A stretch of 64,000 nucleotides of DNA from an uncultured archaeon. Lineage in GTDB: Archaea > EX4484-52 > LFW-46. Both the position numbers and the translations under genes were made by a program. The stretch's first letter is position 1. Each line of letters opens with the position of its first letter. Location of the stretch: NCBI GenBank assembly GCA_902384675.1, contig CABMCT010000031.1, positions 3,425 to 67,424 on the forward strand. Reading direction: 5' to 3'. This document shows, in pieces, positions 317 to 56,130 of the stretch. Under the pieces are notes generated by a model. It saw only the letters and a program-made list of their open reading frames with translations. It searched no databases and had not been told where the DNA came from.

Positions 317-706
317 AGAATCACAAGGAATATTTGGTGGAGAAGGTTTATAACGAAATGAATTATGGCGGGAAATGCTTCGACATCACTTTTTATACCC
401 TCGCGCTAAACTATATTCGGCAAATGATGATACTGACCTACTCTGAAAAAGGATGAAGAGAGATGGGCGGACTGATGCCAAACTTCCACAAAAGTTTGAT
501 CATTGGTGTGACATTCGCTCGCGCGAAGTCACATATTCTCGCGATTTTGAAGCCCTCCGGGCTTCACGCTTTTTTGGTAAGCTTGCCAAAAAAGCTAAAA
601 TCACTCGACTTTGTGATTTGGCTCTCAGAACCCATAAGAAATCATTTCGCTGCCTGTCGATGGCTTTTCTGCATTTTTAAACTTTGGACGCCAATTAAGC
701 GCAAAT

Positions 707-6285: not shown

Positions 6286-8052
6286 TTATTCGTAATAAAC
6301 GCCTTTTTCTTTCTGCTTTGTATCTTTCTGAGAATCCGGCTTATTTGCCCTAGGCCTTCCGGATTCTGTTTCTCTCCTGAATGTTATATTCAAGTCTTTC
6401 AGAAATTCATTCATGCCTTCTTTGAGAGCTTTTGGCGCATTTGCGTGCCCTTCTATGGCGGCTTTGCCGAAAAAGATAATCGAGCGGTCGGAAACGTAAT
6501 GGAGAAGAAGCATGTCGTGGTCGATAATCATGCATGTTTTCTGGTTTGCCTCGACAAACTTGCGCATCATTTTTGCGAATTTCACTCTCTGCTCGACATC
6601 AAGGTACGCAGACGGCTCATCAAGCAGGTAAAATTCTACATCCTGCCCGAGGCATATTGCAATTGCAACTCTTTGCAGTTCTCCTCCCGAGAGGCTTGCA
6701 ACCCGGTTATCAAGCAATCCTTCAAGCTCAAGCGGGCGCAAAATTTCCATCTTGAATTCCTGCGAAAGGAATTTCTTGACGCTTCCTGAAAGCAGCTCGC
6801 CGACAGTCCCTGAAAAATCGCTTTTCAAATATTGCGGCTTGTATGCAATCCGCACGGTTTCGGCGAAATCAACATTGTCCGGCTTTACTTCCCCGGCAAG
6901 CATTTTTGCAAACGTTGTTTTTCCAAGAGCATTCGCCCCGAAAACACCGACTATTTCCCCAGCCATAAGCGAGCCGGCATCCACTTTTAGCGAGAACCCC
7001 GAGTCCATGAACTTTTTCCGAAATTCAGGATAGCTTACAACGCTGTACTTTCCCTTAAAAATCTGGCCTGCTGTCCTGAAGTCAAGTGCCTCCTGCCTGA
7101 ATCTTATATTCTCCTCGCGTATGAATCCGTCAAGATATGTGTTTATGCCGCGCAGGGAATGGTATGGCGCGGAAATAATCCCGTAAACCCCTGCATGGCC
7201 GTATACAAGATGCACGATGTCTGCAAGAATATCCAAGGTTGCAAGGTCGTGCTCTACCACAAGAACTGCTTTCTCTGCTGCAAGTTCTTTTATCGCTTTT
7301 GCAACAATGACACGATGCCTTACGTCCAGAAAAGACGACGGCTCGTCAAAGTAATAGAAGTCCGCATCCTTGCATATCGCTGCGGCAATTGCAACTCTTT
7401 GCAGTTCTCCTCCCGAGAGGTCTGCTATATTTCGCAAAAGTATGGATTCTATCTCAAGCTTTTTTGCAATATCTGCGAGAACTTTTCTTTCATCTTTTAG
7501 TAAGTCAGATACTTTTCCGTTTATACTTGCAGGAATTTTGTCGACCTGCTGCGGCTTGTAAACTGCCCTGATTTTTTTGTCGCGCAAATCCTTAAGATAA
7601 GTCATCAATATGCTTCCTTTGAATTTTGCAATTATTTCATCCCATTCGACACCCTTATCGAAATTTCCAAGATTTGGTTTTAGATTCCCACTTAGAATTT
7701 GTAATGCTGTAGTTTTTCCTATTCCGTTTGCGCCAAGAAGCCCGACCACTTTTCCTTTTTCAGGGATGGGCAGGCCATAAAGCCTGAACGAGTTCTTGCC
7801 GTACTGGTGGATGGGGTCGCTTAATTCCTGCTCTATGTTGATAATTGTGATTGCATTTTTAGGGCACTTTTTTGTGCAGATTCCGCATCCGACGCATAGC
7901 TCCTCCGCTATGTAAACCTTCCCGTTCTTCTCGAACACCGTCTCATCGCCGGTTCTTACTCTTGGGCAGAATCTGATGCATGGCTTGTCGCATTTATCCG
8001 GCCTGCACTTCTCCCGGTCGATGACTGCTATGCGTTTTGGCATACAAACCAA
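6286..8052 (-). CDS. abcE1: ABCE1 / RNase L inhibitor (ribosome recycling factor)
   Basis: 588 aa; N-terminal 2x[4Fe-4S] (CRPDKCDKPCIRFCP, CVGCGICTKKCP) plus two ABC cassettes (Walker A GANGIGKT and GANALGKT, LSGGELQRV signatures). Confidence 0.95.
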   Translation of the reverse strand: MVCMPKRIAVIDREKCRPDKCDKPCIRFCPRVRTGDETVFEKNGKVYIAEELCVGCGICTKKCPKNAITIINIEQELSDPIHQYGKNSFRLYGLPIPEKGKVVGLLGANGIGKTTALQILSGNLKPNLGNFDKGVEWDEIIAKFKGSILMTYLKDLRDKKIRAVYKPQQVDKIPASINGKVSDLLKDERKVLADIAKKLEIESILLRNIADLSGGELQRVAIAAAICKDADFYYFDEPSSFLDVRHRVIVAKAIKELAAEKAVLVVEHDLATLDILADIVHLVYGHAGVYGIISAPYHSLRGINTYLDGFIREENIRFRQEALDFRTAGQIFKGKYSVVSYPEFRKKFMDSGFSLKVDAGSLMAGEIVGVFGANALGKTTFAKMLAGEVKPDNVDFAETVRIAYKPQYLKSDFSGTVGELLSGSVKKFLSQEFKMEILRPLELEGLLDNRVASLSGGELQRVAIAICLGQDVEFYLLDEPSAYLDVEQRVKFAKMMRKFVEANQKTCMIIDHDMLLLHYVSDRSIIFFGKAAIEGHANAPKALKEGMNEFLKDLNITFRRETESGRPRANKPDSQKDTKQKEKGVYYE

Positions 8053-13040: not shown

Positions 13041-14765
13041 ATCAAATCAAAAAGTACACAACCCGAAGGTATAGCGTCAATCTATGTCTTAAACAAAAAC
13101 AAAGACAGTAAAACAGAAATAAACGGGTCATCAGAAAGTTAGGTTAAAACGTGCACAGGAGCGTAGAATCATTCCCTGCAATTATTTGCCTGTTTTTTTA
13201 GTGCAGATTGATACATACATGCTTCTAACACAGGCGGACATGTGCCAAGAACTTGGATTTGCGGTTAGAAACTGCATGCGTAACCCTAGGCTATATTGTG
13301 TGTTTAAACTATATAAAGCTTTTCGACGATTGTCTATTTAAACGTAGTGATATGCCACATGTGAGTAACTATTAAAAAGTTATGAGCAGGTCATTGTCAT
13401 GTTTTTCAAAACAACTTTATTCATAAAATATACGGTTTTTTCTTTAATCTGATTTATGTCTTTTAGACGTAGTCAGGTCGAGGCATCGCGAATATAATTC
13501 GGGATGACAAAAAAGCCGGTGACGAGAGACACAGTAGACGCTGTGGGTAGTTCTACTTCTAGATTACCACGGCTGAATTGTCTTTGGTCAATTACAATCA
13601 TACCATCTGATGAAACGGAAGAAAAACGTCGAGGGGATGGTGCACGAGCAACGCCGTGCGAGCAATTTATTGCTCATGAGAGTTGCCAAAAGTATGGAGG
13701 CAAAGTATTATGGAGAGAACCAGTTTGGTAAAAAAGAGGTTTCAAAACCTCGGAGTCGAAAGTGACAGCTGCGGGATAATTGGAGGCGGTATAGATGGCG
13801 GAGAAATCGGGTTCTGAACCAGAGATTGACAAGACCTCAATAATTGCTCGGTTCGAAGAACTTTCGTCGGAAAAACAAGAAGCGCTCAACGCGCAGGTTG
13901 AAATCGTGGCGGAAAAGGAAGGCAGGATAATTTAACTGCAGTTCTGTGTAATGGACGAAGCGCCCACTCCCTTTGTCCATTACTTTTTTACGATGATAAA
14001 TAATTAACAGGAGGTGAAACATGAAGCAAAAAGGAAGAACTGGGAGGACTAAAGATAGGATAAGCCGAAGAAACCGATTAGTGAACCACGGTTAGTCGCG
14101 AGCTTTCTTTCTTTTAATTTCTTAATTTTTCCTTTTTTTACATTCATAACCCACTCAAGGGTTTTGAAGCAGGCGAAGTAGTGGCAACGTCTTCTTTAAA
14201 TAAATCCACTTTGGGCGCCGCTGTTCTTAGCAAACAATGCCTTTTTAGGGCATCAATTAGGACGGCGGCAAACAGTTTTGCAGTAACTCTTTTTTCTCTA
14301 AAAAAGAGGGGATGGACAGTTGTGGAAAAAAGTGACGGCAAGCGGTGGCGTTTGCCGGAGGTAAAATATGCGAGCTATTCAAGGAATACATAACAAGCGG
14401 ATCGGTGGATCCGGTAAAGAATCGTGGAAATATGGTGGAAACCGAGGGGATTCAAATGCAGGCAGTTGGCGACCTTTCTAGCGGAGAACTAGGGGGTGCT
14501 TTGGGACAAAATCCGCTCTTGCGGATAATAGCCTATGCGGAGCGTAAGGTTATTGACGGTATACGCGGATTGGCGTTGCGCCTAGGGCTCTATGTCGAGC
14601 CAGAGGAGCGACCTATACTCACTGCCGTTCGTATACCTGATGTGGTGACGTTCCAAGGCATTAGAAGGTCTTGCGTGGTTAAGCGCCTTCTGGATCCTTT
14701 TGGAAGAATAGTTGAAACATACTATCTCTTTTCAGGAGGTGCATCCTCCCCTACTTTTTTTCTCT

Positions 14766-14858
14766 TATATATCATTATCAGATATTAGTGAAACATCTTT
14801 AAATATTCTCCTCCCCATAATTGTCTTAAGTCCTGCTGTTTCGTCTTTCGTCGTGATT
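14766..14858 (+). promoter_or_regulatory. Copy A of shared ~95-bp TATA-containing promoter/leader repeat (upstream of 14860 gene)
   Basis: T-run, then tatatcattatcagata, ~45 bp, then gtcttaagtcctgctgtttcgtcttt; ~75% identical to 18401-18490. Confidence 0.6.
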
Positions 14859-14859
14859 C

Positions 14860-15432
14860 GTGATAACTATGGTCCGCCCGCCAAAGGAAGTAAAAGACCT
14901 GACAAAGCGCTATATCAAGCCCGATGAGGTTTATCGGGAACTTGAAGAGCGACCTGAGCCGCGCTTTCTTGAGGAGCCGGAGGAAGAGTATCTCGAGAAG
15001 GAGCCAAAGGAGAAGATAATTAAGCTCCGCGAGCGGGAGACGCTTCCAAGGGCAGAGGATGAGGAGATAAAGTCCCTGCAAAGGGTGAGCCCGCAAATAA
15101 TCGGAAACCTGTTTGACCGTGTGCGGTTTTTAAGCGAGAGGATAGCGGAATTAAAGGCCGCAATCGAGGAGCGAAAGCGGGTAAATAAGGAAATACTTTC
15201 GGAAATAAACGAGGATATCCTGACAAGAAAGGAATTCATGCGCACTCTGGCAGAATTGTCGGACAAGCGGGATTTTATGCTTGATATGTCCCTTCTTGCG
15301 CGGGAAAAGCGAAAGGAAAACGTGCAGTTCTGGCGCGATTTATTGGAAATATCAACCGAATTGCGCGAATTGCAGGAACAGTGGGAGATGGAAAGCAAGA
15401 TTGCATCGATATTTAACTCGATTAAGAGTTAA
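14860..15432 (+). CDS. Acidic coiled-coil protein, unknown function
   Basis: 190 aa, E/K/R-rich heptad-like sequence; probable start at ATG 14869. Confidence 0.5.
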   Translation: MITMVRPPKEVKDLTKRYIKPDEVYRELEERPEPRFLEEPEEEYLEKEPKEKIIKLRERETLPRAEDEEIKSLQRVSPQIIGNLFDRVRFLSERIAELKAAIEERKRVNKEILSEINEDILTRKEFMRTLAELSDKRDFMLDMSLLAREKRKENVQFWRDLLEISTELRELQEQWEMESKIASIFNSIKS

Positions 15433-15885
15433 ATAGCTGAGAGCGGCAGCGAAAGGATATTTGATTCTATCAATACGAAGTGATTCCTATGGTCGTAAGC
15501 ACAAAATATGTCGGGTACAGGGGCCTTTCGTACTGCATATATTGCGATATTCGCGACAGGGTGCAGAAGGCAGTGCGCAGGCTCATCAATCGCCTTAAAG
15601 GAAAGAAAGAGGAAAAAACACGGCAGAAAAAAGACCTCGGCTACAGGCGCTGGATGAAGACCGAATGGGGAGGAGGAGAAGTGTAGGCATTGAGAGGCAA
15701 TTGCATTGTACAGCCTACAATTCGACGACGAGTGAGGAGGAGAAGTATGATTTCTTTGTGCATAGCTTTATTGAGTACAAATCATATTTCGATTGGAGGC
15801 GAGGTATAATGGGATTGTACGTAGAGCTCATTGAAAACCATTGTACTGAGCCGATTGGTGGGGAAGTATAGATAATCATAAAGCT

Positions 15886-16521
15886 CTATTCGCTCTTTAG
15901 CTTTTTCAAAAGTTCGGCCTTTCTTATCTTAAATTCCCTTTGATTGAGCCCTAAATACGCTATATTTTTGGGGCTAAATGCGGTTATTACCTTTGATAGT
16001 TCTCCAGAGAGGTGAGGCAGTCCATACTTTTCCAGAAGCGCGCGATATTTTTTGAAGTCAACATCCACACTCAAAACCAAAGTCATTATATCTATCGCGT
16101 CTTTTTCGCCCTTTATACTCCCACGCCTGTCAATTTCTGCCGCCTGTTTTAATATAAGCAGGGCTTCCGGGATAATCACGTCAATGCCTTCCAGTTTTGT
16201 AGAGCAGTTTTTCAAATCTTGGAGCGGTATTACAAATTTTGAAAAAAACGGCACGTAAATATCGATATCTATCTCGTCGATTTTTATCTCATATTTTCGC
16301 AGTTGCTCGTTTTTTCGTAAGTCATAGTGCTGTTTCAGATAGTCAAGCGTCTTAAAGTCCTTCAAAACAATGTCGATATCTTTCGATTTATGCGCCTTTG
16401 TCCATAGAAACGCAGCCCACCCGCCGATAAGAATGAACTCAAACGGGAGCATTTTCAAGTCTAAAAGAATCTCCCAGCTTCTTCTTGTTACCATATCGCT
16501 CCAAAACTCCTTAATGGCCAT
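15886..16521 (-). CDS. Minimal nucleotidyltransferase-fold protein (AbiEii/MNT-like)
   Basis: ILIGGWAAFLWTKAHKSKDIDIV matches the GG...[ST]xDID NTase motif; overlaps its upstream partner by 11 nt. Confidence 0.55.
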   Translation of the reverse strand: MAIKEFWSDMVTRRSWEILLDLKMLPFEFILIGGWAAFLWTKAHKSKDIDIVLKDFKTLDYLKQHYDLRKNEQLRKYEIKIDEIDIDIYVPFFSKFVIPLQDLKNCSTKLEGIDVIIPEALLILKQAAEIDRRGSIKGEKDAIDIMTLVLSVDVDFKKYRALLEKYGLPHLSGELSKVITAFSPKNIAYLGLNQREFKIRKAELLKKLKSE

Positions 16522-17095
16522 GTATTTTCGCCTCCAGCGCCTTCAAAAAATCCTTTGCATACCACTCTTTTATATTCCAGAGGTCGGCAAAGGTCTGGCC
16601 GATTGTCGTTACGCTTCCGTATTTTTGAATATTCTTGTCTGCATTCAATACAAATAAGTTCGGCGGGTTTCTTGATGCGGGAAAACGCTTCTTAATTTCC
16701 GAAATATCCCGGGAATAAACATATACTTCTGAATAATCTGCAGGAACGTCCTTAAAAGCGAACTTATACGCAGAATACGCTGCAAAAACAGTATTTGAAG
16801 GCAGTAATTTCTCAATTTCTGAAACAGGCAGCTCAACGCGCGTGGAATAAATGATATCTCTTTGCAGGTTTCTGATATTCGCCCAGTAATACAGGATTTT
16901 TTCAATGTCGGTTACTTTAAAACCGCGCGCAAGAACCGCTATTGCGCCCATGGCCCTGAGCGGCCTTAGCGCATAATTGACAACGCTTATTGATATTCTA
17001 AGATTTTTGGAGAGCTCAAGCTGGGTAAAAGTGTGGCGCTTCTTCTCGATTGCCTGATAAAGCAATTCGCGATAAATCTGTTCTATGATTCTCAT
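16511..17095 (-). CDS. Winged-HTH protein partnered with the NTase (AbiEi-like)
   Basis: N-terminal FTQLELSKNLRISISVVNYALRPL wHTH; 194 aa. Confidence 0.55.
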   Translation of the reverse strand: MRIIEQIYRELLYQAIEKKRHTFTQLELSKNLRISISVVNYALRPLRAMGAIAVLARGFKVTDIEKILYYWANIRNLQRDIIYSTRVELPVSEIEKLLPSNTVFAAYSAYKFAFKDVPADYSEVYVYSRDISEIKKRFPASRNPPNLFVLNADKNIQKYGSVTTIGQTFADLWNIKEWYAKDFLKALEAKIHGH

Positions 17096-17589
17096 AAGTT
17101 TCTAATTATAAACTTTTGTATTTATAAATGTTTCTAATATATTAGAAACTCTTAATTTCTCTTTAATATGTAACCTTTTCTCAGTAGCAAAGATTTATAA
17201 GTATGGATATTCTAATAGTAGCGGGCTTTAGCGCTTCAATCATTTTCCTACAAACATTCCAATAAAGAACGAAGTCTTTGCTACTTTGTTTCCAAATGCC
17301 TTTGGGCTTTGGTTTTTTTGAGCCTCTGGCAAGAGAAAGACAAAACAGGTAGCTGGGCTGTTGTTTTCTGAATGTGATGTGGGAAGCGGTCGCATCATAC
17401 GCGCAGTAAGCGAAGATGCAGGAGATAAAAGTGGAATTAAGAGAAAAGTTAGAAAAAACCCTCGTTCTTCTTATCGGCGGCATTCTATTTTGGATAGTCT
17501 CAAAAGGAGCATATGCCGTACCTTTAGTGATTCTTGAATCATTGGCCATAGGATGGCTATGGCTTATAAAAGGAAGGAGGTGACAAGCG

Positions 17590-17736
17590 ATGAAGCATAA
17601 CATATTTACAGCCGTTTGGCTTGTATTGACTGGAGCGGTCGGGTACTTTACCTTACCAGTTCTCGGTCACGCAGCGATTTTCCCTACGGGTATATTCTAT
17701 GTTGCAGGAATCCTGGTGGGAAAGAACATACCGTAA
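17590..17736 (+). CDS. 48-aa two-TM membrane peptide (below ORF-track cutoff)
   Basis: ATG preceded by ggaaggaggtga; MKHNIFTAVWLVLTGAVGYFTLPVLGHAAIFPTGIFYVAGILVGKNIP; 16 nt upstream of the next gene. Confidence 0.45.
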   Translation: MKHNIFTAVWLVLTGAVGYFTLPVLGHAAIFPTGIFYVAGILVGKNIP

Positions 17737-17752
17737 TAAGGAGTAAAGCAAT

Positions 17753-18367
17753 ATGAAAAAAATAGAAGCCCTGTTATCTTATTTTCTTTTGTTCATTCAA
17801 AAGAAAATTGAACCGATTATGAAAACAAATATTGTCTCTTCCTTTATTTCGTTCACACGAAAAAAGGAGAAAGAGATAAGAAATATAGAACGCCCTTCAC
17901 AGAGAGCAATTTACGCCATACTATTTGGCGTCATTGCTGGAAGTCTATTTGTGATGGAATTTGCGAGAGAGTTGAGCAGCAACCACGAGACTTTAACAAA
18001 GTTTATATGGCTGGATGCTATAGTTTACGGATACCTGTTTCTTTTTGGGGCTACCCCTACCAGTGCATTTATGTATCTTTGGGTACTTCCATTTATATCT
18101 AAATTGAAGAGACCCAAAACATGGAATCCTCTTGAATGGGTTTTGGCACTAATGGAAACAAGCGTGTTCTGGTTCGTTTTAGTTCTGCTCATCCTTCTTC
18201 CCGTTTTCGGGACCGCTGTGTACAGGCTAAGGGTATTCGGATGGGCAGATTATGCAGCCAATATGCTGTTATTGATTAGTGCAGGTGTCTTCGGTTTTCT
18301 TGTGTGGTTATTCGCGCAAGAATCAAAATGTACTAGTACATCTTCATGCGAAAGTTCTATAATTTGA
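17753..18367 (+). CDS. Polytopic membrane protein (~6 TM), candidate channel subunit
   Basis: 204 aa; TM segments AIYAILFGVIAGSLFVM, IVYGYLFLFGA, FMYLWVLPFI, VFWFVLVLLILLPVF, LLLISAGVFGFLVWLFA; SD aggagt upstream. Confidence 0.6.
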   Translation: MKKIEALLSYFLLFIQKKIEPIMKTNIVSSFISFTRKKEKEIRNIERPSQRAIYAILFGVIAGSLFVMEFARELSSNHETLTKFIWLDAIVYGYLFLFGATPTSAFMYLWVLPFISKLKRPKTWNPLEWVLALMETSVFWFVLVLLILLPVFGTAVYRLRVFGWADYAANMLLLISAGVFGFLVWLFAQESKCTSTSSCESSII

Positions 18368-18400
18368 GGCAACTGCCCATTTCTTTTTTATTTTCTTAAC

Positions 18401-18490
18401 TATATCATTATAAGATACTTTTAAACCTTTAAATACCTCGCGCGCCAATATGTCTTAAGTCCTACTGTTTCGTCTTTTGTGAGGATTATA
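18401..18490 (+). promoter_or_regulatory. Copy B of the shared promoter/leader repeat (upstream of ATPase gene)
   Basis: tatatcattataagata ... gtcttaagtcctactgtttcgtcttt; see 14766-14858. Confidence 0.6.
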
Positions 18491-18601
18491 TTTTCGCTCG
18501 CAGCATAGTTTGATGACGAAAAATCCGTCGCGACACCTTATGAACCATTGATTGTGTCGCTTTCGGCTTTTAAATCCAATGAATATGGGGAATGATTTAA
18601 A

Positions 18602-20752
18602 ATGGCAGATTATATCCGTATAGATGTCGCGTCCGAAATAAAAAAGCTCGTTCCTGTTCTTGGAAAAGAGAACGCCCTTAAAATCGAGCAGGCGTACCTG
18701 TTGGGCGACGAGGAGATGAAAAAGCGCGTAATCGAGATGCTTGATTCTGTAAAAGCTGCTGCGTATGCCGACGAAAGCCTCAAAAATGCGGTTCTTCTTG
18801 AGGCGCCTTCGCGCGAAACAGCATCATGCGGGGATATTTTTGCAGGCACGGTGCTTTATGGCCAGAAAAGGCTCTACCCGTTCCTTCTTGACCGAAATAT
18901 GTTCCTCACGCATCTCGGGATTTTTGGCTCCTCAGGCTACGGGAAAACCAATGTGGTCCATAATCTTGTCCGCGAATTATCCGAAAAAAGCGTCCCTGTT
19001 CTTATTTTCGACTTCTCAAAGCGGAATTACCGCGACCTCATCAATATCCCGGAATTAAAGGAGCGCGTACAGATTTTCACTATCGGAAGAAACGCCTCGC
19101 CTTTTAAATTCAACCCGCTTTACCCGCCGGAAGGTGTTGAAATATCGCAGTGGATTAAGGAATTCGCAGAGATTTTCGACCATGCATACTGGCTTTTGGG
19201 CGGAGGACGGCATATTATTCTTAAAGTGCTTGATAAGGTTTACAAAAATCCTAAACCCTTCGATTACCCCCAATTACGGGCCATAAAATACGTATTGGAC
19301 GAGCTTGAAAGCGACAAGAATTCCGCAAGGGAGAGGAACTGGATTGTGACTGCGCAAAGGCCCCTGGAATCGCTGTGCTTCCGCGAAACAGGGCAGATAT
19401 TTGATACGAATAAAGGCATTCTTCCCTCGACTTTCTTTGAGGGGCAGAAAATCACAATCCTTGAGCTTGATTCCCTTACCACGAACGACAAGACTTTTTT
19501 CATCGAAATCATGCTGCAGTGGATACGCGACTGGCTTATCGTGAAGAACGCAAAGGAAAAGCTGTCAGGTGTTATTGTTCTTGAGGAGGCGCACCATGTC
19601 CTGAACCGCGAAAAATCGAAAAAAATGGGTGCTGAAAGCGTTATTGACCTTGTCTTTCGTGAGGTGCGAGAGCTTGGCATGGGCATAATCTATGTCGACC
19701 AGCATCCGTCCCTTATCAGCTATCCTGCTCTTGGGAACACGAGCACGCACATCTACATGAACCTGGGGCTTGATACGCAATATTCCTCTGATATTCAGGA
19801 TGCGTGCAGCATGTTGGGCCTGGATTACCGGAGCGAGGGCAAATACCTGCGCCAGCTGCCTGTAGGGGACGGCTTTCTGCTTTGCAGGAGATTGAGCTTT
19901 CCGCACCCGTTTTTAATACAGTTCCCCCTTGCAAAAATAGACAAGGGCTCAGTAACCGATGATATTGTAAAAAGCATTGCGCCAAAGCTTCCGGATGACG
20001 AAATCACAGTTCCTGCGGTCCATGGCCTTCATAGAAAAAAAGAAATCTCTGAGACCCATGAAACTCCTGCGGTGCATATTCAGGAAGTGGCACAGGAAGC
20101 ACCAGTACCCCCGCAAATTCCATTACCTCCTCCTGAAATCGAGAGGCAGCAAAGCAATAATATCATAAAACACAATCTTCCTGAAAGCTGCCTGAAGATT
20201 CTGCGCGTCCTGGGCCGCTTTGATGCATCTGCAACTTCTGAAATTTACAAGGGAATTTCAATGTCGGGCAGCACATTCAAGCAGAATGCGGACCGGCTAG
20301 TCAGCGAAGGGCTCTTGGGCGCAAGGACTGCAAAAGTGTATCGCCAGACATCGATTTTCTACTTCCTTACCAATAAAGGCGCAGCGCTTTTCTCAGGCAC
20401 TTTCAGCATGCTGCACGAGGATATCAATGCGGAGGAATTTTACAACGCTGCAGAGCGGCTTTTTAAGGGCGAGGGATGGGCTGTTGACCGGAGCAAAAGC
20501 ATCTGGACGCTTTTGCGAAAAGACAAGCAGGTGAACGTGATTCTTGTATCGGGGCTTGAGAGGGCCCAGCTTTCCGGCCAGGTTGCGAATGAAAGTGCTT
20601 ATTTTGTTGCTGCGACAGAGCATATCAAGAATGCAATAATCCAGATGGCAGCAAAGCGGGTGAGCGAGACCGGAAAGCCGTTTATTCTGTCTGTTTCTTC
20701 GTTTGAGGCGCTCCATAAGGGCGAGAAATTCAGAAAACTGGCGTTTGAATAA
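18602..20752 (+). CDS. HerA/FtsK/VirB4-superfamily ATPase with ~240-aa C-terminal extension (predicted wHTH plus unknown domain)
   Basis: Walker A GIFGSSGYGKTNVV; HerA-type Walker B VIVLEEAHHV; IIYVDQHPS (QRP-like) motif; C-terminal LPESCLKILRVLGRF...EIYKGISMSGSTFKQNADRLVSEGLL helix-turn-helix. Confidence 0.8.
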   Translation: MADYIRIDVASEIKKLVPVLGKENALKIEQAYLLGDEEMKKRVIEMLDSVKAAAYADESLKNAVLLEAPSRETASCGDIFAGTVLYGQKRLYPFLLDRNMFLTHLGIFGSSGYGKTNVVHNLVRELSEKSVPVLIFDFSKRNYRDLINIPELKERVQIFTIGRNASPFKFNPLYPPEGVEISQWIKEFAEIFDHAYWLLGGGRHIILKVLDKVYKNPKPFDYPQLRAIKYVLDELESDKNSARERNWIVTAQRPLESLCFRETGQIFDTNKGILPSTFFEGQKITILELDSLTTNDKTFFIEIMLQWIRDWLIVKNAKEKLSGVIVLEEAHHVLNREKSKKMGAESVIDLVFREVRELGMGIIYVDQHPSLISYPALGNTSTHIYMNLGLDTQYSSDIQDACSMLGLDYRSEGKYLRQLPVGDGFLLCRRLSFPHPFLIQFPLAKIDKGSVTDDIVKSIAPKLPDDEITVPAVHGLHRKKEISETHETPAVHIQEVAQEAPVPPQIPLPPPEIERQQSNNIIKHNLPESCLKILRVLGRFDASATSEIYKGISMSGSTFKQNADRLVSEGLLGARTAKVYRQTSIFYFLTNKGAALFSGTFSMLHEDINAEEFYNAAERLFKGEGWAVDRSKSIWTLLRKDKQVNVILVSGLERAQLSGQVANESAYFVAATEHIKNAIIQMAAKRVSETGKPFILSVSSFEALHKGEKFRKLAFE

Positions 20753-22502: not shown

Positions 22503-22578
22503 GCCCGGATAGTGTAGTGGCCTATCATGAAGGACTATCAATCCTTCGACCCGGGTTCAAATCCCGGTCCGGGCGCCA
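22503..22578 (+). tRNA. tRNA-Asp-like gene with anticodon ATC (A34) and encoded CCA
   Basis: GCCCGGA acceptor paired with TCCGGGC, T-arm CCGGGTTCAAATCCCGG, anticodon arm GAAGGA-CTATCAA-TCCTTC. Body matches the archaeal tRNA-Asp(GUC) family except G34A and C38A. Confidence 0.75.
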
Positions 22579-32612: not shown

Positions 32613-32818
32613 TTTTTATCATTCTCCATATTTATTGGATAAAAAAGCCTGGAAACCGCAGTTTCCATGATTTTTTATCATTCTCCATTTTTAACCATTC
32701 ACAATTATTATTGGGTTGAAAAGCTTGACACGAAGCCATCTCGATAAATCTCGAAGGCTTCCAGCTTGAAAAGCTGGAGGTGTCATGATTTTACTTGGAT
32801 AAAAATCATCTCGTTTTA

Positions 32819-38041: not shown

Positions 38042-38605
38042 ATGCCGAAAGATTTCCACCATTTCAAGGGAAAGGGATTATCGCGCTCCGAGAAGCTGCA
38101 GCGCAAAGTGACCGAACTGATTCTTGAAAGCAAGATTCCTGATGAGGCGCGCGAAAATTCAAAAATATGGGAACTGAAGCATTCTGCAGGGTGCTGCCAG
38201 ATTGGAAGAATCCTGGCACAGAAAAGAGATCTTGATGTCGAGCTTTCGGAAATCATATGCACACTTCATGATATCTATGCAATTATTGAAGGAAAGTACA
38301 AGGAGCACGCAAAAAGAGGTGCGCAAATCGCCAAAAAGATGCTCATCAATTCTGGAGACTTTAAGCCAGAGGAAATAGAGATTATCACCGAAGCAATAGC
38401 GCAGCATAGCGAAAAAGAGGTATTTACCAATAAGCCTTTTGTTGAGCTGATAAAGGATGTCGATGCATTTGATTGCTCATTGTATGAGAACTCTGAGGCG
38501 TATTATCTTTTGCACAAACCTAAAGAGGTTTACGAGCAGTACGCAAAGCGAATCAAAAATGTACGAAAGGAACTTGATCTAAAAGCGAATAATGTCTTTA
38601 GGTGA
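38042..38605 (+). CDS. HD-domain phosphohydrolase-like protein
   Basis: H...HD spacing (LKHSAG...ICTLHDIYAI). Confidence 0.55.
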   Translation: MPKDFHHFKGKGLSRSEKLQRKVTELILESKIPDEARENSKIWELKHSAGCCQIGRILAQKRDLDVELSEIICTLHDIYAIIEGKYKEHAKRGAQIAKKMLINSGDFKPEEIEIITEAIAQHSEKEVFTNKPFVELIKDVDAFDCSLYENSEAYYLLHKPKEVYEQYAKRIKNVRKELDLKANNVFR

Positions 38606-40937
38606 TATGTTGAAAAATATTTTGTGGCTGGATGAACTCGATAAAAGTTTTGTTGCTCTTGCAGGAAGAAAAGGCGCAAATCTTGGAGAACTCAAAAAAC
38701 CGGGATTTCCGGTTCCTGACGGGTTCGTGATTTCTACCGGTGTTTATAAGGCGATTATCAAGAATTCCGGCTTGTCAAAAAAGATTCAGGCGCTTTTATC
38801 AAACTCGGACATGCAGGATATAAGGATGCTTAATGAAGTATCTGATAAAATACAACCGTTAATATTTGCCGCAGAGTTTCCGGAAAGTATCAAAAAAGAA
38901 ATACGTGAGGCTTATAAAAGAATCGGCGGTCTGGTTGCTGTCCGAAGTTCTGCAACCGCAGAGGATTTAGAATGCTCATCTTTTGCAGGACAGTATGCCA
39001 CGTTCCTGAACGTGACTGAGGGTACTCTTATCGAATCTGTTAAAAAGTGCATTGCATCTTTATTCACACCGCGTGCGATTTCCTATAGAGAGCAAAATCG
39101 TATAGGTAGTAAGGATATTTCCATTGCAGTTATTGTGCAAAGAATGGTTGATTCAAAGAAGGCAGGTGTTGCTTTTTCTATAAATCCAGTAACAGGCAAC
39201 AAAGGCGAAACAGTAATTGAGGCTGTATCCGGTTTAGGCACGCAGGTTGTCGGCGGGGAGGTTATCCCGGACAATTATGTAGTTGCAAAAGATGCTGGTA
39301 AAATAAAGGAATGCCACACTGCCAAAGAGCCTACTCTTAGCGATTCCGAGATTATCTTGCTTTCTGAAAGTATAAGGAAAATCGAGGCGCACCAGAATGC
39401 ACCACAGGATATCGAATGGGCTATTGATAATTCAGGCAAGATACATATTCTGCAAGCGCGTTCTGTAACCGCAGTAAGTCCGAAGAAATCCGTATGGAAG
39501 AAAATCATGGCACGTGAGTATGGTGTGCAGTATACTGAAATGTCCTTGCGCTCTTTGAGCCCTGAGTGCAGTTTTATAATTGATGCGCCTTTTTACGAAC
39601 ACGTGTATGTGCCCGAGGATAAGAACGAGGCTCTTTATGTGGATGAGGCGAAATGGAATGCCTTTGTTTCTTCTCTGAAAAAGACGTATTTGGAGAACCC
39701 GAAGAACTACGAGAAATTTGAAAAGCAATTCATGGAAACCGGTAGCAGTTATGTAAAAACTGCAGAAAAAATATCCGAATCTGCACTTAATGGCAAAACA
39801 AATTCAGAGTTAAAAAAGGATTATCTTGCATATCAGAAAGCGTCTCTCAGATACGCGCCGTTTATCTGGGTACAGTTTTTGATTAATAATTTTTTTGCAG
39901 AAAAAGCCAGGGAAATAATTGGCAGTAGATTGGGCAGCAGCGAAAACCTGCCTGCTTTGTATGATATTGCTCTGAGGCCTGATAAAAAAGCTGCAGCATT
40001 CCAACTAAGTAAAGCGGCTTCTGAATGGGAAAAATTAGATGATGCTGGAAAAACTGAAGTATATGAAAAATTCAAATGGATGCCTTGTATGGATATTCAC
40101 AATCAGCCATGGACAAAGGAAGAATTCTTTTTGCATGTATCGGAATTCAAAAAGCCTGAAAAAAAGCAGGTCTTATCTTACGAAGCATTGATAAAGCAAC
40201 TTAATCCGTCAAAGAAAGAAAAAGAGGTTCTGGACATCGCAAAAAGGCTTGCATACCTGAAAGACTTAAAGGACGATTTCAGGAGGCAGGGAGTATTTTA
40301 CGGGCAGATACTATTCGGGAATATCGCAAACAGAATGGGCATAACACTGGAGGCAGCTTCATATTTATTAGAGTCGGAGATTATTGATTTTCTTGATAGC
40401 GGCAAAGCAGCACAGAAAAGCATTATTGACGAGCGGAAAAAGGGCTTTGTAATCTACTTCCAATGCTCGAAAGAGCTTGGAAGGCTTGAAAATCAGAATC
40501 ATATGCAAGAAGATTTTCATGATTACACACCTCAAAAAACCATATCATGCAAGGCAGGGCGCGATATAACATCTGTAATGAATCTGCTTGGGATAATCGC
40601 AGCTGAAAAATTCTCTGAAGAGATAAAAGGGACACCTGCATCGCTTGGCAATGCGAAAGGCTGTGTGAGAATTGTAAAAGGAGTTTCGGATTTGGGTAAA
40701 GTTATGAAGGGAGATATTATTGTAGCGATAACCACGCATCCTGATTATGTGCCTGCTATGCAAAGGGTTGTTGCAATAGTGACAGATGAAGGCGGCATTA
40801 CTTCGCATGCAGCGATAGTAGCGCGCGAATTAGGGTTGCCCTGCGTGGTCGGCACAAGGCATGCCACAAAGTCGCTGAAGGACGGAGACATAGTGGAAGT
40901 TGACGCGAATTTAGGGGTTGTGAGAAAGATATTGTGA
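38592..40937 (+). CDS. PEP-utilising-enzyme-family phosphotransferase (PPDK-N ATP-grasp plus C-terminal phosphohistidine swivel domain; no TIM-barrel PEP domain)
   Basis: N-terminal LDELDKSFVALAGRKGANLGEL; C-terminal GGITSHAAIVARELGLPCVVG at the extreme end of the 781-aa protein. Confidence 0.85.
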   Translation: MSLGDMLKNILWLDELDKSFVALAGRKGANLGELKKPGFPVPDGFVISTGVYKAIIKNSGLSKKIQALLSNSDMQDIRMLNEVSDKIQPLIFAAEFPESIKKEIREAYKRIGGLVAVRSSATAEDLECSSFAGQYATFLNVTEGTLIESVKKCIASLFTPRAISYREQNRIGSKDISIAVIVQRMVDSKKAGVAFSINPVTGNKGETVIEAVSGLGTQVVGGEVIPDNYVVAKDAGKIKECHTAKEPTLSDSEIILLSESIRKIEAHQNAPQDIEWAIDNSGKIHILQARSVTAVSPKKSVWKKIMAREYGVQYTEMSLRSLSPECSFIIDAPFYEHVYVPEDKNEALYVDEAKWNAFVSSLKKTYLENPKNYEKFEKQFMETGSSYVKTAEKISESALNGKTNSELKKDYLAYQKASLRYAPFIWVQFLINNFFAEKAREIIGSRLGSSENLPALYDIALRPDKKAAAFQLSKAASEWEKLDDAGKTEVYEKFKWMPCMDIHNQPWTKEEFFLHVSEFKKPEKKQVLSYEALIKQLNPSKKEKEVLDIAKRLAYLKDLKDDFRRQGVFYGQILFGNIANRMGITLEAASYLLESEIIDFLDSGKAAQKSIIDERKKGFVIYFQCSKELGRLENQNHMQEDFHDYTPQKTISCKAGRDITSVMNLLGIIAAEKFSEEIKGTPASLGNAKGCVRIVKGVSDLGKVMKGDIIVAITTHPDYVPAMQRVVAIVTDEGGITSHAAIVARELGLPCVVGTRHATKSLKDGDIVEVDANLGVVRKIL

Positions 40938-55882: not shown

Positions 55883-56130
55883 TTTTTATCATTCTCCTTC
55901 TTCTTTAGATAAAAAAGCTTAAAATCCGTAGATTTTATGATTTTTAGCCATCTCCATTTTTAACCATTAGCCCCTTACTTGGGCTAAAAAGCTTGCCACG
56001 TTGTGGCAAGATTAATTCACCATTTACTATAAGAATAAAACCGTACGGGATTCTGGCTCAGGTTGTCTCTAATTAGATGCTGCTTATTCTTTATAAATCT
56101 AATCGGGAGCCAAAACCCCCTAAAATTTCT

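Follow-up and report, generated by a model that had tools for sequence, protein, structure and literature searches.

Tandem copies of a stop/start junction behind a small archaeal gene: a candidate translational relay towards a HerA-like ATPase gene

How does the end of a small archaeal gene come to be repeated in tandem, and what do the copies do? The question is raised by a 64,000-nt stretch of DNA from an uncultured archaeon (referred to as the window), in which GGNGGNGARGTNTRR, encoding Gly-Gly-Glu-Val-stop, occurs exactly four times, in all cases on the forward strand. A first-pass annotation had described a 63-bp-periodic array of four repeats encoding three micro-ORFs that end in GGEV-stop, and had offered several readings, among them a family of small tagged peptides, a recoding or attenuation element and a decayed repeat array. 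Our analysis identifies the repeats as tandem copies of the stop/start junction ending a small conserved archaeal gene. As far as can be judged from sequence, the units most likely pass ribosomes towards a downstream ATPase gene. The features are collected in Table 1.

Table 1. Features of the array and its surroundings (positions within the window).
Feature	Position	Strand	Remarks
Promoter-like element, copy 1	14798-14848	+	upstream of the array-bearing operon
187-aa coiled-coil-like gene	14869-15432	+	first gene of the conserved module
65-aa basic protein gene, C-terminus KTEWGGGEV	15489-15686	+	parent of the repeat; ATG at 15489
Junction unit 1, GGAGGAGAAGTGTAG	15672-15686	+	last 15 nt of the 65-aa gene; SD-like GGAGG, TAG stop
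Hairpin 1, GAAGUGUAGGC pairs with GCCUACAAUUC	15678-15723	+	encloses the stop codon of the 65-aa gene
39-codon TTG-initiated ORF (putative start)	15690-15809	+	decayed first slot reading in frame into micro-ORF 2
Junction unit 2, GGAGGAGAAGTATGA	15736-15750	+	SD GGAGG (15736-15740) 6 nt before ATG 15747; ATGA-type overlap (15747-15750)
Hairpin 2, GAAGUAUGAUUU pairs with AAAUCAUAUUUC	15742-15790	+	predicted to sequester AUG 15747
Micro-ORF 2, MISLCIALLSTNHISIGGEV-stop, 20 aa	15747-15809	+	intact 20-codon ORF
Junction unit 3, GGAGGCGAGGTATAA	15795-15809	+	followed by TG, giving a TAATG stop/start overlap
Hairpin 3, GGUAUAAUGG pairs with CCAUUGUACU	15803-15847	+	predicted to sequester the UAAUG junction
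Micro-ORF 3, MGLYVELIENHCTEPIGGEV-stop, 20 aa	15809-15871	+	orthologue of the L001 peptide MYLCPRFIEAHCTEPIGGEV-stop
Junction unit 4, GGTGGGGAAGTATAG	15857-15871	+	terminal unit; no ATG after it, no significant hairpin (p = 0.71)
Lineage-specific insertion, ~2.6 kb	15872-18489		separates the array from HerA; sits exactly after the last unit
AbiEii-like 211-aa gene	15886-16521	-	in the insertion; weak family match
HTH 194-aa gene	16511-17095	-	in the insertion; weak family match
204-aa membrane-like ORF	17753-18367	+	in the insertion
Promoter-like element, copy 2	TTTAAATA at 18428-18435; motif at 18451-18477		in the insertion
Structured leader upstream of HerA	18490-18601	+	directly after the micro-ORF in L001
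HerA-like (DUF87) ATPase gene with C-terminal region	18602-20752	+	PF01935, E = 2.8e-14

The four occurrences compare with a mean of 0.02 in shuffled sequences, and not one of 100 shuffles reached four. The units follow each other at distances of 64, 59 and 62 nt; the four-unit array described before is thus real, while the strict 63-nt period is not. Tandem Repeats Finder reported no array, because only about 15-25 nt of each unit are alike and the remainder is too divergent. Pairwise repeat families reach 82-84% identity over 17-19 nt. The attgtac noted earlier in the spacers between units is confirmed; the spacers also have TTGTGC/TTGTAC, ATTGAA and CATTGTAC in common, and homologues of them are found in other genomes.

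With a degenerate CRISPR-like or other spacer-acquiring array, the locus shares nothing but the spacing, which is roughly regular at about 60 nt. Its repeats are both short (15-25 nt) and degenerate, the presumed spacers are homologous to each other and to units in other genomes, and repeat 1 encodes the C-terminus of a conserved protein. Moreover, no Cas family turned up when the neighbouring proteins were tested (Pfam, NCBIfam, PADLOC); the only related signals were weak matches of Csa3- and CARF-domain models, which cover HTH-like regions of the HerA-like and 194-aa proteins. This explanation, already dismissed in the first-pass annotation, is refuted by these observations.

The parent of the repeats belongs to a module with conserved gene order: a 187-aa coiled-coil gene, a 65-aa gene and the gene of a HerA-like ATPase. 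Upstream of the module, an archaeal TATA-like box, TTTAAATA (14798-14805), is followed by the conserved motif TGTCTTAAGTCCTGCTGTTTCGTCTTT (14822-14848). This 27-mer has two copies in the window (none expected), and the extended motif including TTTAAATA also occurs upstream of the same operon in two related loci, L001 and L002. We regard the element as a putative promoter. There is no T5 run within 15433-15871, the first one being located at 15902-15906, and the array would be co-transcribed with the 187-aa and 65-aa genes. The coiled-coil-like protein has no match in Pfam or NCBIfam; in every related locus, its orthologue is encoded ahead of the small gene or of HerA. A pair of genes for 187 and 781 aa at 38042-40937 was considered as a paralogous copy of the module and rejected.

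The 65-aa protein is 100% identical to P0001 (VVB60144.1, uncultured archaeon), one of eight close homologues, of which the other seven are 68-77% identical. All eight end in GGGEV, and the codons of this tail vary synonymously (GGA/GGC/GGG, GAA/GAG, GTG/GTA/GTT). Distant homologues carry the GGG motif internally, followed by 20-30 more residues. Scans for the family in sets of genome contigs and metagenome contigs returned nothing, and in viral contigs a DNA pattern for EWGGGEV gave two unrelated chance matches. The AlphaFold2 model (pLDDT 58), with two helices and a disordered tail, is of low confidence; therefore no interaction surface can be inferred from it, and a fold search would be meaningless.

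Small protein tags of the Pup and UBact type carry a C-terminal Gly-Gly-Glu/Gln. The 65-aa protein resembles them in being small, predicted to be partly disordered and conserved at a C-terminus with Gly-Gly-Glu. However, it is basic instead of acidic, has an extra Val after the Glu and no Pfam match, and its distant homologues continue past GGG. Of the neighbouring genes tested, none was ligase-like. We consider the likeness superficial and rejected a Pup-like tag as a candidate.

The three ORF ends with GGEV-stop exist as previously described, but the first of them, MKTEWGGGEV-stop, ends the conserved 65-aa gene and not a micro-ORF. At this junction, unit 1, the overlapping ATG has been lost from the stop (GTGTAGGC). 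The slot behind it (15687-15746) has decayed: its tail, CGACGACGAGTGAGGAGGAG, is like the tail of the unit in L007, CGACGACGAGAGGCGGGG, but 2 nt longer, by which the frame is broken. We infer that the TTG at 15690 is used as start of the resulting 39-codon ORF. This ORF and the 65-aa ORF share a frame, but TAG is the stop of seven of the 44 long ORFs; TAG reassignment or read-through was rejected, and nothing supports the recoding element suggested before.

Unit 2 terminates no ATG-initiated ORF, as a TGA (15733-15735) immediately precedes it in the GGEV frame. Instead, its GTATGA provides the ATG of micro-ORF 2, the same architecture as in the 190-aa/HerA junctions of distant relatives. Micro-ORFs 2 and 3 are linked by TAATG at 15807-15811, with GGAGG (15795-15799) and GAGGT (15801-15805) upstream of the ATG at 15809. 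SD-like 5-mers precede 13 of 43 long ORFs (background 4.9%). Coupled gene pairs are recognized by a stop/start overlap or a gap of few nucleotides and by an SD inside the upstream ORF, and the array displays both. Unit 3 is identical in sequence to both unit ends of L001, and blastn aligns window 15795-15870 with L001 3184-3259 at 79% identity.

In related loci, 0, 1 or 2 units lie between the 65-aa gene and HerA: none in L002, L006 and L082, a truncated stub of 17 nt in L005, one in L001 and L007, and two fused units in L083. The window has three slots. The units are conserved in relatives, contrary to what would have refuted the first-pass annotation, and every recognized unit ends in GG(E/K)V with variation at third codon positions, a pattern which is partly circular, as all other positions are set by the search pattern itself. 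Both unit ends of L001 are identical 15-mers, which suggests sequence exchange between repeats. The gene end and HerA junction of L002 (GGCGGGGAAGTTTGAGGTC.AT) match the unit end of L007, as would be expected after a deletion between repeats.

At eight of ten junctions, the ATG overlaps the stop or directly adjoins it, and the 65-aa gene is followed by TAATG or TGATG in L001, L005, L007, L008 and L083. In six of seven uninterrupted loci, the stretch between the 65-aa stop and the HerA ATG is spanned by ORFs with gaps of at most 10 nt, where it has to be noted that there are about eight independent loci and the statistics are not independent. L001 is the locus with larger gaps in its chain (22 and 17 nt). 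In relatives, the start codon of the HerA-like gene closes the chain. In L083, unit 1 carries a +1 frameshift and unit 2 has lost its ATG, which together result in a single 39-codon ORF with TGATG on the HerA start, while in L005 a 41-codon ORF stops 2 nt before the HerA ATG. The frameshift is shared by L008 and L083, two diverged strains, in which the HYTETIGGEV frame is no longer read from an ATG and its DNA is retained. In distant relatives, the gene preceding HerA without exception stops within 0-5 nt of the HerA ATG or overlaps with it; an SD placed in its final codons gives rise to tails such as GGEE, GGRE, SGE and PGV before the stop.

RNA structure prediction across the array revealed three significant hairpins. 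Since MAFFT gave no single structural register for the units, targeted duplex energies were compared with two null models, shuffles and natural windows. Hairpin 1 is present in both the MFE and the centroid fold of its unit (z = -3.0) and has a duplex energy of -14.9 kcal/mol (p = 0.002 in shuffles; top 0.7% of natural windows). For hairpin 2, MFE and centroid folds are the same, the arms are 92% complementary, and a CAU His codon pairs with AUG 15747 (-12.8 kcal/mol, p = 0.002 in shuffles, top 2.6% of natural windows). Hairpin 3 (z = -2.2; -12.9 kcal/mol, p = 0.008, top 2.5% of natural windows) has an additional outer GGC/GCC helix at 15798-15800 and 15850-15852, and its equivalent is found in L001 and L008. 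In the window, the hairpins are predicted to block a downstream start codon or RBS where a terminating ribosome could reach them, as expected for coupling by RNA unfolding.

Stable hairpins are a property of junctions entering a unit (p = 0.002, 0.002, 0.008, 0.010, 0.031 and 0.002, from about eight independent loci with several homologous units, so that the statistics are not independent). Junctions leading into HerA or unrelated DNA have no stable hairpin (p = 0.4-0.97). Each stem comprises 10-12 bp, and the arm sequences differ among units 1, 2 and 3 of the window. In L001 and L008 the stems are kept through changes from G-C to G-U and A-U, although few sequences are available; the positions of the 3' arms are not strictly homologous from unit to unit, and these compensatory changes are not classical covariation. 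In L083, unit 1 forms a weakened hairpin and unit 2 forms none.

Could the array be an RNA entity, i.e. stem-loops in the 3' end of the operon or the 5' region of HerA that serve protein binding, processing or stability, with incidental ORFs? The hairpins are significant and variable in sequence, that of unit 1 is kept without a start codon, and the adjacent HerA leader is clearly structured, with three helices in which nine of 32 pairs show changes on both sides across three sequences. The 65-aa protein, judged from its very basic composition, could bind RNA. However, an Rfam 15 scan of the window at gathering thresholds returned two tRNAs only, and no match was obtained over 14700-18700 even at E <= 1. 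The fold of 15640-15900 as a whole reaches only z = -1.9, the stems of L083 are weak or absent, and the ATG overlaps as well as the ORF chain ending on the HerA start are left unexplained. We therefore regard this explanation as very unlikely.

The explanation we favour, with moderate confidence, is that the array consists of translational-coupling cassettes which arose from the 3' end of the 65-aa gene and were duplicated in tandem. Such a cassette would consist of four parts: a G-rich stretch (GGAGG or GGTGG) encoding Gly-Gly and at the same time matching the Shine-Dalgarno consensus; a stop codon overlapping or adjoining the next ATG (TAATG, TGATG or ATGA); an ORF of about 20 codons; and an inner segment of this ORF, usually with CAU, pairing back with the stop/start junction in a hairpin of 10-12 bp. 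A ribosome ending the upstream ORF would melt the hairpin and reinitiate at the overlapping ATG, unit by unit, while free ribosomes would be excluded by the paired start codon. In relatives, the units would pass translation from the small gene to HerA, probably dampening it, and their number would change through unequal recombination between the 15-nt unit ends. The GGEV tail would stem from the parent protein, in which GGG is under protein-level constraint, with codons that happen to form a ribosome-binding site. Translation and coupling of the units are inferred. It speaks against the relay that the chain of L001 has the larger gaps given above, and that unit 1 of the window, having lost its ATG, still forms a strong hairpin, which a pure restart model does not need.

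That archaea perform termination-reinitiation at 1- or 4-nt overlaps, helped by SD motifs within genes, has been demonstrated (Huber et al. 2019, PMC6728339; PMC10666635). The array agrees with these pairs in its co-directional ORFs joined by TAATG, TGATG or ATGA in an archaeal genome, in the SD-like GGAGG inside the upstream ORF, 3-9 nt before the restart codon, and in the enrichment of SD-like motifs before genes. It differs in that the known pairs are two ordinary genes, while here the ORFs are tandem self-similar 20-codon copies, derived from a duplicated junction and variable in number, whose coupling is predicted. Coupling by RNA unfolding has been reviewed for phage f1 genes VII/IX, MS2 coat-lysis and E. 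coli rpmI-rplT (PMC12548453); unlike in these cases, the hairpin is repeated per cassette with a new arm sequence each time, and its 3' arm is located inside the very short downstream ORF. Short ORFs that lie behind a promoter-proximal gene and ahead of a main ORF (HerA), combined with RNA structure, also recall control by uORFs or leader peptides, and such an arrangement could dampen downstream translation. However, the units follow a gene and not a transcription start, and in the window they precede no gene. The attenuation element proposed earlier comes close to the relay, but the logic of a leader-peptide attenuator is missing: the array has neither regulatory codon runs nor a terminator/antiterminator alternative.

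The micro-ORFs could also encode functional 20-aa micro-proteins whose T-E-x-I-G-G-E-V mimics the T-E-W-G-G-G-E-V tail of the 65-aa protein and which act through it, e.g., as competitors of the 65-aa protein for binding to a partner, which might be the HerA-like ATPase or the 187-aa protein. For a peptide family with a C-terminal tag, as suggested before, it speaks that the tag is the conserved tail of the 65-aa protein, copied by the micro-ORFs. The parent tail is under protein-level constraint, with GGG kept in distant homologues even where it is internal, and all recognized units end in GG(E/K)V with third-position variation. Micro-ORF 3 and the L001 peptide are identical at 13 of 20 positions and have IE.HCTEPIGGEV in common; their C-terminal halves differ by four synonymous and one non-synonymous changes. 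This bias and the third-position variation hint at selection on the peptide, which the relay does not require. On the other hand, the peptide bodies are poorly conserved and the N-terminal halves nearly unconstrained (five non-synonymous changes in six codons between micro-ORF 3 and L001). The L008/L083 lineage reads the unit in another frame and has kept the DNA, and the close relatives L002 and L006 do without any unit. The apparently conserved His codon is accounted for by its pairing with AUG, the third-position pattern is subject to the circularity mentioned above, the identical 15-mers of L001 suggest exchange between repeats, and the parent model reveals no interaction surface. Taken together, functional micro-proteins appear unlikely.

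Alternatively, the units could be neutral debris, i.e. decaying duplicates of the gene's 3' end produced by recent slippage or unequal crossover, in which ORFs, starts and hairpins are inherited and not selected. Copy numbers of 0 to 3 among close relatives are in accordance with this, as are the one window slot and the one L083 unit that lost ATG or frame, the remaining stub in L005 and the unit-less loci, which appear functional; moreover, a frame of 20 codons is open by chance in about 38% of cases (estimated as (61/64)^20). The decayed array of the first-pass annotation fits one slot, but both 20-codon ORFs are intact. The differing arms of units 1, 2 and 3, each pairing over 10-12 bp, are not given by simple inheritance, and as parent junctions leading straight into HerA have no hairpin, the hairpin belongs to the units and was not copied from the parent junction. 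In L083, the frameshift and the lost ATG together keep an uninterrupted ORF ending exactly on the HerA start, and units are retained in lineages that share no more than 68-80% identity in the 65-aa protein. We consider neutral debris improbable. If it were nothing else, the locus would still document a rearrangement hot spot, with gain and loss of units, toxin-antitoxin insertions and promoter duplication, in a conserved uncharacterized archaeal module of coiled-coil protein, small basic protein and HerA-like ATPase.

Archaea commonly use coupling via overlapping stop and start codons, which is known to join one ordinary gene to another. In the array, the junction itself, with SD, stop/start overlap and occluding hairpin, appears to have been turned into a repeat unit that grows and shrinks between close relatives and gives rise to chains of 20-codon ORFs. 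If the relay holds true, it would be a natural means of adjusting, through copy number, how strongly neighbouring genes are expressed relative to each other, and synthetic operons could adopt the design as it is. A more far-reaching version, distinctly doubtful at present, is an expandable relay or rheostat in which copy number sets the ratio of small protein to ATPase, possibly with TE.IGGEV peptides competing for the partner of TEWGGGEV. Since each cassette would bring its own SD, restart codon and occluding hairpin, gain or loss by recombination would leave coupling intact, and every added reinitiation step would cut the ribosome flow to the HerA-like ATPase. The array also shows how micro-ORFs sharing a 'tag' with a neighbouring protein can arise, which pipelines for small-protein annotation would otherwise call a new peptide family.

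The location between convergent genes, mentioned in the first-pass annotation, applies to the window but is secondary. It was created by the insertion, while in relatives the array is located directly upstream of a co-directional HerA-like gene. The synteny breakpoints are sharp, window 15870 corresponding to L001 3259 and window 18490 to L001 3260. By this event, the insertion, which carries its own copy of the operon promoter, would have cut the relay, so that the array is left as a remnant at the 3' end, in which one slot has decayed and two micro-ORFs are intact. That two units are intact although the array no longer leads to HerA is a further observation against the relay, which makes sense only with a recent insertion or another role of the units. 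Searches of viral contigs, plasmids and phages gave no sign of a viral origin of the module: scans with the HerA N-terminus in sets of genome contigs and viral contigs returned nothing, and tblastn of HerA against plasmids and phages yielded remote DUF87 matches only (<30% identity). Behind the insertion, the HerA-like protein itself is well conserved, its first 200 residues being 84-88% identical to the orthologues in L001, L002, L005 and L006.

The 64-kb window holds four copies of the motif GGNGGNGARGTNTRR, which encodes Gly-Gly-Glu-Val-stop, all on the + strand; dinucleotide-preserving shuffles averaged 0.02 copies, and 0 of 100 reached four. Thus, the repeat array described in the first-pass annotation stands, but its even 63-bp period does not, as successive unit ends are 64, 59, and 62 nt apart. 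The likeness of the units is restricted to cores of 15-25 nt with 82-84% pairwise identity, which explains why Tandem Repeats Finder reported nothing here. CRISPR is excluded, as the annotation had stated. The ORF ends quoted there were correct on re-reading; of its three consecutive micro-ORFs, two are intact ORFs of the 20-codon type, whereas the first forms the 3' end of a 65-codon gene with its ATG at 15489. No ATG-initiated ORF terminates in unit 2, as TGA 15733-15735 immediately precedes its GGEV codons. The GTATGA of this unit supplies the ATG (15747) for the second peptide, and TAATG links micro-ORF 2 to micro-ORF 3. The 65-aa ORF, a TTG-initiated 39-codon ORF, and micro-ORF 2 share one frame (15489-15809, +), and read-through of TAG 15684-15686 would yield a 107-residue product, again GGEV-ended. 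This is probably a coincidence, since TAG is an ordinary stop codon in the window, terminating 7 of 44 long ORFs.

The window is archaeal (RLI/ABCE1 gene at 6286-8052), and SD-like 5-mers lie upstream of 13 of its 43 long ORFs versus a 4.9% background. The 65-aa ORF is, as judged by comparison, a genuine gene. Its product is identical to VVB60144.1 (uncultured archaeon), and all seven close homologues (68-77% identity) end in ...KTE[WL]GGGEV, the Gly, Glu, and Val codons of this tail differing at synonymous third positions. Searching 1.8 billion representatives with a profile added just three more distant members; two of them, and the homologue on the related contig L010, carry W..L[DE]QGGG[VI] internally, followed by a K/E-rich extension of 20-30 residues. 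Both observations make the Gly-rich motif a conserved feature of the protein. Scans found no family member in the species-representative genome collection or in the viral contig collection; by these searches, the family is rare and limited to one uncultured lineage. In the distant homologues of the related loci L084 (1388-1630) and L010 (~150-410), the sequence runs on beyond the GGG motif. The L084 extension (...GGGID-MGIPGLSEKRKFDKKNEGKADGGK-stop) starts with Met-Gly-Ile and finishes with Gly-Gly-Lys-stop, much as if a micro-ORF unit had been joined on in frame; duplication may thus not be the only origin of the units, which could stem from the splitting of an ancestral C-terminal extension.

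Every related contig shows the same order: a ~187-aa coiled-coil-like protein, the small protein, and a HerA-like DUF87 ATPase, whose first 200 residues are 84-88% identical. ORFs span the distance from the small-gene stop to the HerA start with gaps of at most 10 nt in six of seven uninterrupted loci; at 8 of 10 junctions, the stop is overlapped by an ATG or directly adjoins one. The L001/L009 unit is an orthologue of micro-ORF 3 (79% DNA identity). In L083, an extra A within a five-A run of unit 1 and the lost ATG of unit 2 result in a single ORF. The end of the small gene and the HerA junction in L002 (GGCGGGGAAGTTTGAGGTC.AT...) match the end of the L007 unit, as would be expected of the remnant of a deletion between repeats, and both unit ends of L001 are identical 15-mers. 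Together with the differences from locus to locus, this indicates that copies are gained and lost through recombination between unit ends. The small gene is missing from nearly all of ~60 metagenomic loci that are more distant (HerA identity 54-71%), L010 retaining its distant homologue. In these loci, the 190-aa gene and the HerA ATG usually overlap (ATGA) or are separated by 0-5 nt, and the last codons of the gene hold an SD (GGTGA or GGAGG), hence tails such as GGEE-stop, GGRE-stop, SGE-stop, and PGV-stop. Tight coupling of HerA via a G-rich, SD-encoding tail of the preceding gene is, on this comparison, the ancestral state of the module.

Table. Features of the array, its surroundings, and related loci (window positions unless a locus is named)
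Feature	Position	Strand	Description
GGNGGNGARGTNTRR copies (units 1-4)	15672-15686, 15736-15750, 15795-15809, 15857-15871	+	motif count in window
Micro-ORF 2	15747-15809	+	intact; peptide MISLCIALLSTNHISIGGEV
Micro-ORF 3	15809-15871	+	intact; peptide MGLYVELIENHCTEPIGGEV
Slot 1 stem	15678-15688 with 15713-15723		arms GAAGUGUAGGC / GCCUACAAUUC
Slot 2 stem	15742-15753 with 15779-15790		arms GAAGUAUGAUUU / AAAUCAUAUUUC
Slot 3 stem	15803-15812 with 15838-15847		arms GGUAUAAUGG / CCAUUGUACU
Weakly AbiEii-like 211-aa gene	within 15872-18489	-	weak family match
HTH 194-aa gene	within 15872-18489	-	weak family match; overlaps AbiEii-like gene
204-aa membrane-like ORF	within 15872-18489		in insertion
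Promoter-like element	14798-14848 and 18428-18477		TTTAAATA, ~16 nt, TGTCTTAAGTCCTRCTGTTTCGTCTTT; repeat search
HerA leader	18490-18601; L001 3260-3371; L005 ~350-460		~110 nt, conserved, three helices
L002, L006, L082			no unit; 65-aa stop to HerA ATG 10, 2, 5 nt, respectively
L007			65-aa gene, TGATG, 19-codon unit (MLCTEVIEAQTPTTRGGEV-stop), 9 nt, HerA
L001 / L009			65-aa gene, TAATG, 20-codon unit (MYLCPRFIEAHCTEPIGGEV-stop), 110-nt structured leader, HerA
L083			65-aa gene, TAATG, two units fused into one 39-codon ORF, TGATG on HerA start
L008			starts as L083; contig ends thereafter
L005			unit reduced to 17-nt stub; TGATG-started ORF, 41 codons through leader, stops 2 nt short of HerA ATG

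In all three slots between successive unit ends, a segment ~25 nt downstream base-pairs with the last two codons plus the stop/start junction. These stems are present in MFE or centroid folds, differ in arm sequence from slot to slot, and fall within the top 0.7%, 2.6%, and 2.5% of all natural 62-nt windows of the sequence. A targeted duplex-energy test gave p = 0.002, 0.002, and 0.008 for window units 1-3, and 0.010, 0.031, and 0.002 for the units of L001, L007, and L008. L083 unit 1 reached p = 0.155; L083 unit 2, whose junction has lost its stop/start character, was not significant, and junctions into HerA or unrelated DNA all gave p = 0.4-0.97. In units 2 and 3, AUG is paired with a CAU codon, which accounts for the 'conserved' histidine of the peptides. 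As MAFFT places the 3' arms in no single homologous register, the predicted hairpins would represent maintained complementarity rather than textbook covariation; no Rfam family matched them. That the array is neutral debris seems unlikely: hairpins of differing sequence, absent from the parent junctions, are hard to reconcile with pure neutrality, and so are the frame-restoring changes in L083. An element acting as RNA only is more improbable still.

The micro-ORF peptides may be under selection, with functional tail mimics about as unlikely as debris. GG[EK]V closes all recognised units, and their variation falls at third positions, a point that is partly circular owing to the search pattern; the C-terminal half of micro-ORF 3 differs from L001 at four synonymous sites and one non-synonymous site. 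However, sequence is exchanged between the repeats of a locus, the peptides are unconstrained in their N-terminal halves, the L008/L083 lineage reads the unit in another frame, and units are missing from two close relatives.

The simplest account covering all findings, to which we give about an even chance, treats the repeat unit as a cassette for translational coupling. Its parts would be a Gly-Gly codon pair resembling an SD, a stop codon overlapping the next start, a hairpin that occludes this start, and a short ORF regenerating the same tail. The first T5 run after the array begins at 15902, with none earlier, which suggests that the array is co-transcribed. Ribosomes would reinitiate unit after unit and, in the relatives, thereby relay and probably dampen HerA translation. 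In the window, this relay would be cut, HerA having presumably gained its own promoter copy and retained a structured leader; the array there is, on this account, a remnant with an already decayed first slot. Termination-reinitiation at stop/start overlaps, helped by intragenic SD motifs, has been demonstrated experimentally in archaea (PMC6728339; PMC10666635), and the array has like overlaps and SD-like motifs. In the classical 'RNA unfolding' route of coupling, an upstream ribosome opens an inhibitory hairpin (PMC12548453), to which the predicted start-occluding hairpins are comparable. The coupling mechanism itself is already known; as far as our searches and knowledge go, tandem, copy-number-variable, self-similar coupling cassettes yielding tag-sharing micro-ORFs have no described precedent. 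Such micro-ORFs bear the same tag as the parent protein; the lineage is rare and uncultured.

Synteny breaks at 15870/15871 and 18489/18490 (blastn). A lineage-specific segment of ~2.6 kb (15872-18489) is inserted exactly behind the stop of micro-ORF 3, the last one, so that the position between convergent genes proposed in the first-pass annotation is secondary. One copy of the promoter-like element heads the operon, and the other closes the insertion on its right, immediately ahead of the HerA leader; the element recurs at ~1562 and ~2931 in L001 and at ~2262 in L002. The second L001 copy likewise sits at the right-hand edge of an insertion, in this case ahead of the 65-aa gene. Insertions seem to bring a promoter copy restoring expression of the downstream genes. 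L084 has a HepT-like gene in the interval matching the window insertion, and L001 two small genes between its 186-aa and 65-aa genes. The module looks like a preferred insertion site of toxin-antitoxin-like cassettes.

The HerA leader shows both-side changes at 9 of 32 predicted pairs (three sequences only), and its last helix pairs a U-run with an A-rich stretch just ahead of the HerA AUG. It had no match in Rfam. A short ORF inside it, MAKNPFTMPYEPWDASFSAFLSK in L001, carries a frameshift in the window. The leader may be an undescribed cis-regulatory RNA.

A pre-start sequence, (A)TGGAGAATGATAAAAA-ATG, is nearly identical in three unrelated-looking genes (32613-32634, -; 55883-55904, -; 18580-18601, +), the last being the HerA version, TGGGGAATGATTTAAA-ATG; it may be a 5'-UTR/RBS module used across the genome. 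A tRNA at 22503-22578 (+), assigned to Asp by ARAGORN, encodes its 3' CCA and scores 62 bits with the Rfam tRNA model; its anticodon loop, CTATCAA, gives the anticodon AUC, with A34 in place of the usual GUC. It is either an unusual A34 tRNA-Asp or the result of a mutation or sequencing error.
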